A DNA stretch of 64,000 bases from Escherichia coli (lineage in GTDB: Bacteria > Pseudomonadota > Gammaproteobacteria > Enterobacterales > Enterobacteriaceae), in assembly GCF_003018115.1 (NCBI RefSeq), contig NZ_CP027457.1. One strand, 5' to 3'. Made by a program: the position numbers. Each line of letters starts with the position of its first letter. Position 1 is the first letter of the stretch. Positions 13,901-19,900 of this stretch are shown here, piece after piece.

Positions 13901-16900
13901 GGGGGTGGATATTCTCAAGGAGGGCGGGAATGCCGTTGATGCCGCCGTGGCGGTGGGCTACGCGCTGGCGGTAACGCATCCGCAGGCAGGGAATCTGGGC
14001 GGTGGTGGTTTTATGTTAATCCGCTCGAAAAATGGCAATACCACGGCTATCGATTTCCGCGAAATGGCACCCGCCAAAGCGACCCGCGATATGTTCCTCG
14101 ATGATCAGGGCAACCCGGACAGCAAAAAATCACTCACTTCGCATCTGGCTTCCGGCACACCGGGTACGGTAGCAGGTTTCTCGCTGGCGCTGGATAAATA
14201 CGGCACCATGCCGCTGAACAAAGTCGTGCAGCCCGCGTTTAAACTGGCACGCGATGGTTTTATCGTTAACGACGCGCTGGCTGACGATCTCAAAACCTAC
14301 GGTAGCGAAGTGTTGCCGAATCACGAAAACAGTAAAGCTATCTTCTGGAAAGAGGGCGAGCCGCTGAAAAAGGGCGACACGCTGGTGCAGGCGAACCTGG
14401 CAAAGAGCCTGGAGATGATTGCCGAAAACGGCCCGGACGAATTCTATAAAGGCACGATAGCGGAACAGATTGCCCAGGAGATGCAGAAAAACGGTGGCTT
14501 GATCACTAAAGAAGATTTAGCGGCGTATAAAGCGGTCGAACGCACACCGATAAGTGGCGATTATCGCGGGTATCAGGTTTACTCCATGCCACCGCCATCC
14601 TCCGGCGGGATCCATATCGTACAAATCCTCAATATTCTGGAAAACTTCGATATGAAGAAATACGGCTTTGGCAGCGCCGATGCGATGCAAATCATGGCAG
14701 AAGCGGAGAAATACGCCTACGCCGACCGCTCGGAATATCTTGGCGACCCGGATTTTGTCAAAGTACCGTGGCAGGCGCTGACCAATAAAGCCTATGCCAA
14801 ATCTATTGCCGATCAAATTGATATCAATAAAGCGAAGCCATCCAGCGAAATTCGCCCCGGCAAGCTTGCGCCTTATGAGAGTAATCAAACTACCCATTAC
14901 TCAGTGGTGGATAAAGATGGTAACGCGGTGGCGGTGACCTATACGCTGAACACCACCTTCGGTACGGGCATTGTCGCGGGCGAGAGCGGTATTCTGCTTA
15001 ATAATCAGATGGATGATTTCTCCGCTAAACCGGGCGTACCGAACGTTTACGGGCTGGTGGGCGGTGATGCCAACGCCGTCGGGCCGAATAAACGTCCGCT
15101 GTCGTCAATGTCACCAACCATTGTGGTGAAAGACGGTAAAACCTGGCTGGTCACCGGTAGCCCTGGCGGGAGCCGGATCATCACTACAGTGCTGCAAATG
15201 GTGGTGAATAGCATCGATTATGGCATGAACGTCGCCGAAGCGACCAATGCGCCGCGTTTCCACCATCAGTGGTTGCCGGACGAGCTGCGTGTCGAAAAAG
15301 GGTTTAGCCCGGATACGCTCAAGCTGCTGGAAGCAAAAGGTCAGAAAGTGGCGCTGAAAGAGGCGATGGGCAGTACACAAAGCATTATGGTTGGGCCGGA
15401 CGGTGAGTTGTACGGCGCATCCGACCCGCGCTCGGTGGATGATTTAACGGCGGGGTACTAAGGTTAGCGGCCCTCTTCGTGGGAAGAGGGCTATTTTGTC
15501 AGGGCAAGCCGAAGGTAGCCTTTTTTATTTCGTAATCCTGTAGATATTCTTCCAGCGGCTTTGCCGTTCCCAGAGAATGAATTTCACCACTGTCTTTATC
15601 AATAATAAAAGGTGCGTTACCAGCTAAGCGCGCGGCCTCATCTCCAGTTTCGAGAAATTCTCGTGCTTCGAAACAGAAATACCAGCCCTGGCTAAAGCGT
15701 CCATGTAGAGTAATGACGACCGGGAGATCTGCATCATCAAGGTAATGGTTCGCTTTCGCGAATGCGTCGTGATAAGTAATCATAATTATAATAAATATTA
15801 TTGTTGAGTGTTATATTATTATTCCTGTGTGATACATTGAGCAAAGGCGAGTTCATCTTCGTCAAAGATATTATTAAATGCTGATTTTGAAAAAAGTTCA
15901 TCGGATAAGATATAGTCACGAAAAAAGTATCTGCTAATATTTTGTGATTTCTTTTTCAGAACGTCGAACGGGATTTTCTTATTTAAGATATCAGAATCTT
16001 ATGATTCGGGTAAAATTCTAAATAAATCAACATGTCACTAAAATCATCATAGCCATTAGCTATTTCGGCTAAAATAGAGACTACATGTCTTCGGTCCATC
16101 TCACTTAAGGAGTGTAGTTCCGTTGTAAGTTTTTCCATAGCTTGCATTGCTAAATTTCGAACAAGGAATTTTCTGGTGGTAATCTCTAAAAAGATGGCAT
16201 GGTTTACAATGATTTTTGTTTCCTTTTGATTATTATGAACAACTGTCCATGATTTCGTTTAAGAATGAAGAGAAATCACTAAACGAACTGAATATATTTT
16301 CTGTGCCAATATTATCTCTAATTTCAAAAAAGTTACTTTTAATGTCATAAGTAAATATTGAAATGCTATCATCCCCGATCACTAACCGTTCTTGTAGATC
16401 AGGGTTTATGAAATCATCATTATTTCTATAAAATTCATTTACGGCAAAAAGGTTTTTAACTGAAGGTTCTGGAATCGAGAGGCTAAATAATCGCAATCCA
16501 TTAACTTCGAATCCATCCATTGCTCTTAAAAAAGTAAGATAATCAGGTTGATTCTTAAAAAGAATACTAACTTCATTACATAACTTCTCCAGGCAATTAG
16601 TTGAATTAGAATTAAATTCTATTTGGATTATACTTTCAATAAATGATTCCTTGAGCGGTGCTTCAAATGGATAGTCTAAATCATTCATCATTTTTATTAA
16701 TTTGTTTATTTGGGTTTTAGTCATCATTTTGTGGGTTCCATAATATTTTTCATGGGAGGATAAATTGAGCCAGATGGAATGGCCCAGGGAGTGATTTTGC
16801 TTTCACCTACTAATATTCCCTTAGCTATTCGTGATTGCATGTTAGTAAAAACTTTATGATATGGTTCGTTTTCGATTAATACTAAATTTTCGAAATCATT

Positions 16901-19900
16901 AGTACCACCATCATCTAGAGATAGTTTATGGTGAACATTATAATTTAGAGGAACATAGCCCTTTCTCATTCTTAAAAGGTCTTCGGCGTTGAATCTTCCA
17001 GATGCTTCGGAGGTTTTTGCAAGTTTGATAAGAAAATTTTTTCTTACAGTTTTGTTAAACTCCTTTCGTAAGTTAGCTAAGTCTTTTGAAGGTCTCTTAA
17101 TGTATATTATTTCTATTATGTCTATGCCATCAAGAAGTTTTTGTTGATCTCTAAGTTTGCCTAAGTAACTATTTATTTCTGTATATGTATCAACTTTAGA
17201 ACGCTTTGTTAAAAGAATAGATGCTGTTGCTATCGCTATGCCCGCTGTTTTTTCATTTAGTATTTGATCATAGCCTTTGATTGCATCTCCACCCAGTTTT
17301 TCCGCAGTATCTCTGAATCCTTCAATGTTCCCATTGTATACGCCACCAGCAGCAAGTAGCCTGCCAACAGCTTTGCTGTTTAACGTTTTGAAACGATTAT
17401 TTGTTTGGTTTTTTGAATTTGGTAAAAACAAACGGTTATAATTTTCAGGGAGTGCCAAATAGCTGAACTCGGTATTTGCGATAAGATGTTGACAGAGGAT
17501 AAATTCATAACTAACAGTTATTGTTTCTGTATCCATTTGATTTTGAATGATCTGATGATGAATAGCCGATAAAAAAGCGCCTCTTAGTTGTATATAATAA
17601 TACTTTTCCCATCTGCCAAATCTATTGATTCTATAAAAGTCAAATTCCATAAATAATTGCTCATTATTGTTAATGGAATTAATAAGTAATGGAGTGCTTT
17701 TATCAATTAATTTACAAAATGTTATACCCTGTAACTGTGAACCAAGCCCCGTATTAGTAATGCTATTTGCGAGTGAGAATGTAAATATTTCATTCTCATG
17801 CCCGCTCTGCCAGCGATTACCTATAGATTCAGTAGTCCCACAACCTGCGGAGATGCTTCCTTGTTGTTCTCCCGTTACTGTCAGGTAAACAATATTACTC
17901 ATCCCTGAAAAGTCCTTTTATGGCATGCTATTTTATCAATGGCACTATTATGCTTGTTAATTGTTATTTATTTACTCCAGGAAATTGTAGGCGTATATAT
18001 TAAAAAATAAAATATTACACTTTAGGAAGTAATTATGAGGTAAATCTCAATATATTTATTGGAAAAATAAATACATTAAAGGAAGGTATGCCGATTTTTA
18101 ATGACACCCTTTTCCCATCTCAGAAAAAGGGCACTATATTACTTCACCCGCGCCATAAAATACGCATCAACATATTCACCATTACGTAATGCGTACTTCT
18201 TGCCAGTCCCTTCAATCTCAAAGCCGAATTTTTTATAGACCTTAATTGCTGGCGCGTTATCGACGAACACCGTTAGCTCGATACGATCTACCCGCAACCA
18301 GTTGTCGCACATTTCAATCATCTCTCGCACCAGGGCGCTGGCGACGCCGCGGTTCTTCCAACGAGAGTCGACACAGATACCAAAATCGGCAACATGACTG
18401 CGGCGTGGGCGCTGTTGCACGTCAATGGTGAGATGGCCCACGACGTCTCCATCAATACAGGCGACGAGTTGCTTGATGCCGGGACGATCGGCGAGTCGCT
18501 CCTGCCACATATAATCGGAAGGATGAGGCACTTGTAGCGTGTTGTAATACACCTCCGGCTGGGCGTGAATCTGCCTGATGGCCTCGTAATCGCGCGTTTC
18601 AGCATGGCGTATCACTATCTCACTCATTCCTTTGTCCTCTTTGGGGTAAATGTCCCTTTCAACATCATTGACTTTCGAATGCGAGTCAAATGCATTTTTT
18701 TGCAAAAAGTGTTGGACAAGTGCGAATGAGAATGATTATTATTGTCTCGCGATCAGGAAGACCCTCGCGGAGAACCTGAAAGCACGACATTGCTCACATT
18801 GCTTCCAGTATTACTTAGCCAGCCGGGTGCTGGCTTTTTTTTTGATCTTTCGTTCTCAATTTATGCTCGGGAAGTGCTTGTGTTCGTTATGCGCACTCCA
18901 GTAGGAACCACGTCCGCTTTGCGCTAAGGTGTAAATAACCACCTTAAAAAGGACGAAATCATGGTCATCAACTGCGCCTTTATTGGCTTCGGCAAAAGCA
19001 CCACCCGTTACCATCTGCCGTATGTACTTAACCGCAAGGATAGCTGGCATGTCGCGCATATTTTTCGCCGCCATGCAAAGCCGGAAGAACAAGCTCCCAT
19101 TTACTCTCATATCCATTTCACCAGCGATCTCAACGAAGTGCTAAACGATCCCGATGTTAAGCTGGTTGTTGTCTGCACCCATGCGGACAGCCACTTCGAG
19201 TACGCGAAGCGCGCGCTGGAAGCCGGGAAAAATGTGCTGGTCGAAAAACCGTTCACTCCGACACTTGCGCAGGCGAAAGAGCTGTTTGCACTGGCGAAAA
19301 GCAAAGGGCTGACCGTCACGCCATATCAGAATCGTCGCTTTGATTCCTGCTTCCTGACGGCGAAAAAAGCGATTGAAAGCGGCAAGCTGGGAGAGATTGT
19401 TGAAGTGGAAAGCCATTTTGACTATTACCGCCCGGTCGCAGAAACCAAACCTGGGTTGCCGCAGGATGGCGCGTTCTATGGCCTTGGTGTGCATACGATG
19501 GACCAGATTATTTCTCTGTTCGGTCGCCCGGATCACGTCGCTTATGACATCCGCAGCCTGCGCAATAAAGCCAATCCTGACGATACTTTCGAAGCGCAAC
19601 TGTTTTATGGCGACCTGAAAGCCATCGTCAAAACCAGCCATCTGGTGAAAATCGATTATCCGAAATTTATCGTTCACGGTAAGAAAGGTTCGTTTATTAA
19701 ATACGGTATCGACCAGCAGGAAACCAGCCTGAAGGCTAATATTATGCCGGGCGAACCGGGATTCGCAGCGGATGATTCGGTCGGTGTGCTGGAGTATGTC
19801 AATGACGAGGGCGTGACGGTCAGAGAAGAGATGAAGCCGGAGATGGGCGATTACGGGCGCGTTTATGATGCGTTGTATCAAACAATCACCCACGGTGCGC

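Follow-up and report, generated by a model that had tools for sequence, protein, structure and literature searches.

The stretch analysed here, 64,000 nucleotides of the Escherichia coli contig NZ_CP027457.1 (RefSeq assembly GCF_003018115.1) and called the window below, contains between ggt and yhhY an AT-rich islet with the genes yhhZ and yrhA, predicted to code for a type VI secretion effector of the Hcp-HNH kind and for its cognate immunity protein. The islet extends from 15784 to 18138 and is limited on one side by the start codon of yrhB at 15783 and on the other by the end of yhhY (18139-18627, minus strand), whose stop codon lies at 18139. It is missing from genomes that have an empty ggt-yhhY site or yrhB alone. 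The genomes with only yrhB part from the window within ~10 bp of 15784 (about 15784-15795) and regain its sequence at the yhhY stop (~18139), so that the segment singled out in the preliminary description has the natural boundaries of the islet. The GC content was 32.1% for the islet versus 51.8% for the full window and, gene by gene, 54.7% for ggt, 52.1% for yhhY, 46% for yrhB, 34.5% for yhhZ, 29.1% for yrhA and 33.3% for yrhD, bearing out the conspicuous contrast with ggt and yhhY that had been noticed at first.

Three open reading frames (ORFs) are found in the islet, all on the minus strand. The gene yhhZ (16724..17902) codes for 392 amino acids (aa), yrhA (16233..16727) is one continuous ORF of 164 aa, and yrhD (15983..16138) is a 51-aa ORF annotated in RefSeq as 'protein YrhD' that has no NCBIfam or PADLOC match and to which none of the small ORFs at the corresponding Citrobacter locus is homologous. 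Those Citrobacter ORFs, together with a 294-aa gene also found there, were compared with YrhB, YrhD and the O157 DUF4225 protein and rejected as homologues. Read on the minus strand, yhhZ ends in ACA AAA TGA and yrhA begins with ATG ATG ACT, the stop of the first gene and the start of the second sharing the ATGA at 16724-16727; both this overlap and the unbroken yrhA frame of 164 codons are as they had been described. Upstream of yhhZ there is an AT-rich intergenic region of 236 bp (17903..18138, minus strand) that would contain its promoter. A scan of promoter and terminator consensus sequences gave no excess over shuffled sequence, the sole clear terminator being the hairpin between ggt and yrhB at 15469-15492, and an Rfam scan found nothing credible within the islet. 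The ends of the islet were searched for mobility signatures and only short AT-rich chance repeats were detected, with no target duplication and no integrase.

YhhZ starts with an Hcp/TssD tube domain (residues 1-150, 17453..17902, minus strand) that matches the Hcp1/TssD profile TIGR03344 at an E-value of 4e-36 with 124 bits (cutoff 58.9) and the Pfam family T6SS_HCP at 8.6e-13, and that has its fold in common with phage tail-tube proteins. A conserved junction follows (residues 172-232, 17207..17389, minus strand), with many invariant columns in the homologue alignment, reading KTLNSKAxGRLLAAGGxYNGNxEGF...LGGDA..GYDQ and then continuing as a hydrophobic helix. Residues 245-385 (16748..17170, minus strand) are predicted, from a fold model and from homologues, to be an HNH toxin domain of the beta-beta-alpha-metal type. 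In the AlphaFold2 (AF2) model of YhhZ these residues are the only confident part, with a predicted local distance difference test (pLDDT) score of 84-96. They have a small sheet and helices ahead of a beta-beta-alpha unit, and HNH proteins appear among the structural neighbours. The predicted catalytic motif NVHHKLSLDDGGTNDFENLVLIENEPYH occupies residues 321-349 (16856..16942, minus strand), and H324, H325, D330, D331, G333, N335, N339 and H349 were invariant in 33 homologues of two architectures. In the model strand 321-325 closes with H324 and H325, strand 340-344 begins with N339 and H349 falls within helix 345-360, an arrangement in which the general-base His, the structural Asn and the metal-ligand His of a beta-beta-alpha-metal HNH domain are all present. 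YhhZ has in fact been placed in group 32 of the His-Me finger superfamily (Jablonska et al. 2017, PMC5714182), and it would be expected to act as a nuclease. The domain searches recovered both the Hcp-like N-terminus and the C-terminal HNH-type motif that had been proposed for this protein, the second weakly in Pfam and with the motif intact.

The immunity partner is recognised mostly by its predicted structure. YrhA matches its own NCBIfam family (NF038335), and some UniRef names of its relatives read SMI1/KNR4. It had no match to SUKH or SMI1_KNR4 in Pfam even at E <=10, and a sequence search against PDB returned only noise, therefore a fold search was needed. The top structural neighbours in this search included immunity proteins of type VI secretion systems (T6SS) and of LXG toxins, and the modelled fold of YrhA is of the SUKH/SMI1-KNR4 immunity type, with only 12-18% sequence identity to the SUKH proteins YobK of B. 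subtilis (2prv), Lin2918 (2icg) and Tdi1 (8g0k). SUKH proteins are the textbook antidotes to nuclease toxins (Zhang et al. 2012, PMC3482391), and YrhA would be expected to neutralise the YhhZ toxin.

In K-12 BW25113 a 768-bp IS1 copy (IS1E) is found inside yrhA, flanked by a 9-bp duplication of TTTAATGTC. This is a published feature of K-12, in which the yhhZ-yrhA operon is driven by promoters yhhZp5 and yhhZp7 with no terminator ahead of IS1E (PMC12428005), and it agrees with what the preliminary description had stated about this strain. The K-12 YrhA is 138 aa long, with 130 native residues and 8 read from IS1, and with the truncation past residue 130 the modelled fold loses its final helix and three of its strands. 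The K-12 locus (yhhZ - yrhA'::IS1E - yrhD - yrhB) has the gene set and order of the window at 97.6% DNA identity, but in the window the target of IS1E in yrhA codons 128-130 is unoccupied and TTTAATGTC is present as a single copy (16338..16346). No IS1 terminal inverted repeats were found in the whole 64 kb at <=4 mismatches, as expected from the initial statement that IS1 is lacking here. We surveyed 5426 complete E. coli genomes for this region. At least 80% of window positions 15400-18800 was present in 3757 of them, the IS1 target site was uninterrupted in 3413 and the yrhA-IS1 junction was found in at most 373, the examples seen being the K-12 laboratory derivatives BW25113 and C600, plus strain USML2. 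Therefore the intact islet is not peculiar to the window strain; it is the majority state and the norm of the species, and K-12 is the exception. The other states of the ggt-yhhY gap were an empty site of 58 bp, yrhB alone and a DUF4225 gene (one such genome was opened, SRCC 1675). In addition, some E. coli variants of yrhA are frameshifted (P0053 and its relatives, 155 aa), with a product that diverges past ~residue 119, and this is a second route to a damaged immunity gene that does not depend on IS1.

YhhZ has been published as an 'evolved Hcp' (PMC2907695), and a system of the same build has been described as Hcp-ET1/ETI1. In reviews of Ma et al. 2017 (PMC6730261, PMC6099711) and in a preprint (bioRxiv 10.1101/2024.03.05.583533), Hcp-ET1 of STEC004, O104:H4 C227-11 and 55989 is an orphan Hcp-HNH DNase with ETI1 downstream; according to the same two reviews it is a T6SS2-delivered toxin that degrades the DNA of its target and that ETI1 neutralises. 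E. coli 55989, which the preprint names as a carrier of Hcp-ET1/ETI1 (bioRxiv 10.1101/2024.03.05.583533), has at the same yhhY-ggt locus a pair of 392 aa and 164 aa that are 95% and 99% identical to the window proteins, the larger being the sole Hcp-HNH protein found in that genome. As in the published pair, the islet combines an N-terminal Hcp/TssD domain, a C-terminal HNH-DNase extension and a predicted immunity gene directly downstream, away from T6SS clusters, and we saw no structural difference between the two; the closest complete genome to the window, however, appears to be without a delivering T6SS. Other T6SS HNH toxins, such as Rhs2-CT of Serratia marcescens (9t38) and RhsB-CT of Dickeya, have Rhs/PAAR as carrier whereas that of YhhZ is Hcp, and the YhhZ toxin domain differs from them by an extra N-terminal beta-sheet with helices (residues 245-313) and by the family of its immunity protein. 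We consider with good confidence that the islet codes for a specialised type VI effector together with its immunity protein, a pair of the published Hcp-ET1/ETI1 type, and as such it is no new system and nothing out of the ordinary in E. coli. The Hcp extended-toxin layout first suggested for these genes stands, given the Hcp profile, the HNH motif, the predicted SUKH fold and the toxin-immunity adjacency, which is kept in the related loci described below. A methionine-to-cysteine role given for 'yhhZ-yrhAB' (PMC3309015) seems to stem from a confusion with yrhA/yrhB of B. subtilis, genes of the same names that are unrelated.

Several points weigh against reading the islet as an effector-immunity pair of this kind. 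The equation of Hcp-ET1/ETI1 with YhhZ/YrhA is one that we infer from secondary sources and from the comparison of loci. The Pfam HNH match on YhhZ residues 322-343 is marginal (E 0.015; 1e-4 in a homologue from an IncHI2 plasmid), and the HNH of YhhZ was termed 'degenerate' by Blondel et al. 2009. A shallow and mixed alignment made the AF2 model of the full-length protein poor over residues 1-240, and the Hcp domain had low confidence, therefore its assignment comes from the sequence profiles cited above. K-12 keeps the yhhZ-yrhA islet without a T6SS, and its truncated yrhA is not lethal. Finally, in most genera the toxin cassette has a head other than Hcp and is found far from T6SS genes, and it is also carried by conjugative plasmids; therefore T6SS delivery is not the whole story for this cassette.

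The question of delivery was examined in E. coli F9792, the closest complete genome, which is 100% identical to the islet region over 3.4 kb and 99.95% identical to the window over the aligned part (14069-64000, ~50 kb). No T6SS structural genes are annotated in F9792 across the region colinear with the window, from livJ to feoB, and this is in keeping with the earlier remark that the window has none. The survey of T6SS genes in F9792 covered the aspV and metV sites, with pheU, pheV and other sites outside it. The region at aspV (tRNA-Asp) contains a T6SS remnant beside ISEc1 (locus L019, 14121-24431), with an intact hcp, a frameshifted VasL gene, a C-terminal fragment of tssM/IcmF and an Rhs fragment, and the metV site is empty, with no T6SS. 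The description of the effector as orphaned holds accordingly for the window and is supported, at the two sites surveyed, for its closest complete genome. F9792 keeps the ETT2 type III secretion genes. These observations also fit a silent relic, a toxin that is never delivered for want of a working T6SS and is kept silent by its AT-richness, with selection acting on yrhA, for its protection from competitors that carry Hcp-ET1, and yhhZ hitch-hiking without a current function. This overlaps in part with the explanation that we prefer and differs from it by denying any current function to yhhZ. It would account for the aspV remnant and the empty metV site, for the retention of yhhZ in K-12, which has no T6SS (PMC6730261), and for a GC content of 32% that is typical of silenced islands. 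Furthermore, K-12 is alive with its YrhA cut after residue 130, which implies very low expression of the toxin. On the other hand yhhZ is full-length in a cluster of 13,190 sequences at 90% identity, its catalytic residues are invariant, the T6SS sites of F9792 have been surveyed only in part (aspV and metV), and the substitution patterns described next are those of a constrained protein. We regard a silent relic as a serious alternative, though an unlikely one.

The comparison with Citrobacter youngae, where a syntenic and equally AT-rich copy of the islet lies between yhhY and ggt (Hcp head and YrhA homologue), gave saturated synonymous sites and a ratio of nonsynonymous to synonymous substitution rates (dN/dS) of ~0.1, therefore yhhZ and yrhA have been under long-term purifying selection. 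Between E. coli and Citrobacter dN was 0.127 (0.13) in the Hcp domain against 0.29 in the toxin domain and 0.28 in YrhA. Toxin and immunity protein diverge together, and the Hcp domain is the most constrained part of YhhZ. Both the conservation of the Hcp domain across genera and the dN/dS of ~0.1 in the toxin domain argue against a yhhZ that merely hitch-hikes. The horizontal origin that had been deduced from AT-richness survives in part. The cassettes are AT-rich in all their hosts (37-45% GC for the toxin and 29-36% for the immunity gene) and a foreign origin of the islet is plausible, but not as a recent event; judging from the syntenic Citrobacter copy and the saturated synonymous sites, its arrival in the Escherichia/Citrobacter lineage was not recent.

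The exact YhhZ sequence of the window was found on 479 public contigs. It has 95% identity with its counterparts in K-12 and 55989, with 21-22 aa substitutions, 14-15 of them in the Hcp domain. Differences from K-12 are clustered in a block at 17400-19500 that runs from the 5' half of yhhZ across the intergenic region, yhhY and the ryhB region into yhhX, with up to 16 differences per 200-bp bin versus 0-5 elsewhere in the islet. This block looks like an imported recombination tract, because of which only 8 complete genomes are >=99% identical to the window allele. That the Hcp domain of this allele has been under positive selection was considered and rejected, the substitutions belonging to a block that reaches yhhX and dN/dS being 0.36.

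The toxin module has been reused widely, and a YrhA homologue was found downstream of it in every context opened. These were, besides Citrobacter, contigs of Leclercia, Enterobacter roggenkampii, Pantoea and another enterobacterial genus, one IncHI2A plasmid and one Pantoea conjugative plasmid. YhhZ residues 172-382 are 57-68% identical to proteins that have at their N-terminus not Hcp but the Pfam domain DUF8093 (PF26362; loci L012 8845-10501, L025 10001-11663, L026 10001-11656 and L022 1-1350). Among the retrieved sequences that could be classified there were 14 Hcp and 69 DUF8093 heads, DUF8093 taking the place of Hcp in most genera with the cassette. The idea that DUF8093 is a diverged Hcp was rejected with hhalign (probability 0.1%). 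Two DUF8093 proteins (P0246 and P0248) share only the junction (63-69% identity to YhhZ 172-230) and then have a different C-terminus, which in P0248 is DUF6883, followed by two DUF4926 genes. A common junction with swapped C-termini is what recombination among polymorphic toxins produces. The presence of DUF8093 on the HNH cassette and, through the junction, on DUF6883 suggests that it could be a trafficking domain of a polymorphic toxin family. In a 628-aa LXG toxin of SPbeta-like Bacillus phages, an effector type of the type VII secretion system (T7SS), the last 142 residues share 44.6% identity with YhhZ 244-385, and the next gene downstream codes for a 152-aa distant relative of YrhA (27% over 83 aa, E 9e-6). 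These toxins differ from YhhZ in their LXG head, Gram-positive host and prophage location and are without the 172-232 junction; the reuse of one toxin domain in LXG proteins is again a hallmark of polymorphic toxins. The gene 3' of the phage toxin, spr_27, had no sequence match in PDB, and no tie to YobL/YobK was established.

The module is also frequent on plasmids. Plasmid records with the module and a gene of the YrhA family numbered 462, including 433 of conjugative plasmids, and the conjugative plasmids sampled were of 190-450 kb and came from Enterobacter, Salmonella, Citrobacter and Klebsiella, the one opened being typed as IncHI2A. The plasmid homologues have ~49% identity to the junction-plus-HNH part of YhhZ and 27% for the YrhA-family gene. 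On the IncHI2A plasmid (pSE15-SA01028, locus L028 3578-5155) the toxin-module protein has 353 aa, with an unclassified head of 130 aa that has no Pfam match, and adjoins traG; on the Pantoea plasmid (L029 2575-4155) the cassette is found beside a replication gene. Such a distribution brings up a selfish or addiction cassette that would be independent of secretion, with junction-HNH and YrhA acting as a toxin-antitoxin (TA) or plasmid stabilisation or exclusion module and the head being secondary. In Leclercia, Enterobacter, Pantoea and the other enterobacterial genus the cassette is an isolated two-gene islet amid housekeeping genes, with no T6SS genes within 10 kb, and toxin and antidote genes overlap or abut as they do in TA operons. 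However, the toxin-first order and a SUKH antidote are the pattern of polymorphic toxins and not that of classical type II TA systems (PMC3482391), the toxin domain is mounted on bona fide secretion heads (Hcp here, LXG in the phages), killing by Hcp-ET1 depends on T6SS2 according to the reviews, and PADLOC and TA families gave no match. An addiction cassette is for us very unlikely.

Somewhat less improbable, but still distinctly doubtful, is a broader view in which the unit under selection would not be an 'Hcp effector' but a portable cassette of junction, HNH toxin and YrhA that is mounted in Enterobacterales on swappable heads (Hcp, DUF8093 and the head of the IncHI2 plasmids). DUF8093 and the plasmid head would then be delivery domains that have escaped recognition, serving to load T6SS cargo or in transfer linked to conjugation, or else the cassette would be a secretion-free addiction or exclusion module. 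The junction at residues 172-232, with its glycine-rich motif and hydrophobic helix, could in such a cassette take the nuclease across the inner membrane of the target cell. An anti-phage defence, in which infection would trigger a nuclease through an Hcp sensor similar to a tail tube, with YrhA as inhibitor, is far more remote than all the others. The phage tail-tube fold of the Hcp domain, the AT-rich stand-alone nature of the cassette and the other defence or TA islets of the window (PsyrTA and AtaRT, see below) go in its direction. It is nevertheless unsupported, because none of the four islet proteins matches PADLOC (0/4); in addition no phage-related trigger or context was seen, and both the SUKH partner and the swapping of heads point to interbacterial toxins.

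Under the effector-immunity reading that we prefer, and following the account of Ma et al. 2017 in the reviews, the Hcp domain of YhhZ would be built into the secretion tube of a cell with a compatible T6SS and fired into a neighbour, where the HNH domain would degrade DNA. Through the ATGA overlap yrhA would be translationally coupled to yhhZ, and YrhA would bind and block the toxin in the producer and in kin cells. With no T6SS structural genes in the window and only the aspV remnant in F9792, the pair would be stand-alone in the lineage of the window and its present role more likely defensive, that is, immunity against neighbours armed with Hcp-ET1. The toxin gene would there be kept at low expression. 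What the analysis shows directly is the domain architecture, the intactness of the catalytic motif, the fold of YrhA, the conserved adjacency of toxin and immunity genes, the long-term purifying selection and the lack of IS1; the nuclease activity, the neutralisation by YrhA, the dependence on a T6SS and the low expression are what we infer from it.

Some other loci of the window were noticed as well. Directly abutting it, yrhB (15499..15783, minus strand, 94 aa) matches the Pfam immunity family Imm35 (PF15567) at E 4.6e-23 over model positions 1-85 of 85, has no cognate toxin at the locus and occurs without yhhZ-yrhA in strain RUT3575. Imm35 has been linked to the papain-like toxins Tox-PL1 (Zhang et al. 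2012, PMC3482391), and the reviews list an Hcp-ET5 with a papain-like peptidase; therefore the ggt-yhhY gap may earlier have been host to other Hcp toxins. On the other side, ~640 bp from the islet edge, the gene of the small RNA RyhB is found in the yhhY-yhhX intergenic region (18778-18842, plus strand; Rfam RF00057, 83 bits). A two-gene insert at 24185-27483 (plus strand), between yhgN and gntU, codes in overlapping reading frames for a RecQ-like helicase of 698 aa and a DprA-like protein of 431 aa. It is missing in 55989, where yhgN abuts gntU, as is presumably also the case in K-12. PADLOC identified the products as PsyrT (1062 bits) and PsyrA (E 1.7e-202), and the insert is by these matches a PsyrTA (RqlHI) toxin-antitoxin anti-phage system. 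Finally, at ~1380-2180, in the gap between panM and livJ, there is an ataR-ataT type II toxin-antitoxin pair (GNAT toxin) according to the F9792 annotation.

Taken by itself the islet of the window matters little, being the common wild-type form of a published effector-immunity locus. Its RefSeq label 'tssD / tube protein' conceals the toxin nature of YhhZ, and studies of yhhZ and yrhA in K-12 deal with a strain that has a damaged immunity gene. The one lead that deserves to be handed on is the reuse of the cassette as a module, and it lies outside the original observation: the junction-HNH-YrhA cassette behind DUF8093 and on IncHI2 plasmids may be of use to work on polymorphic toxins and on plasmids of this group.

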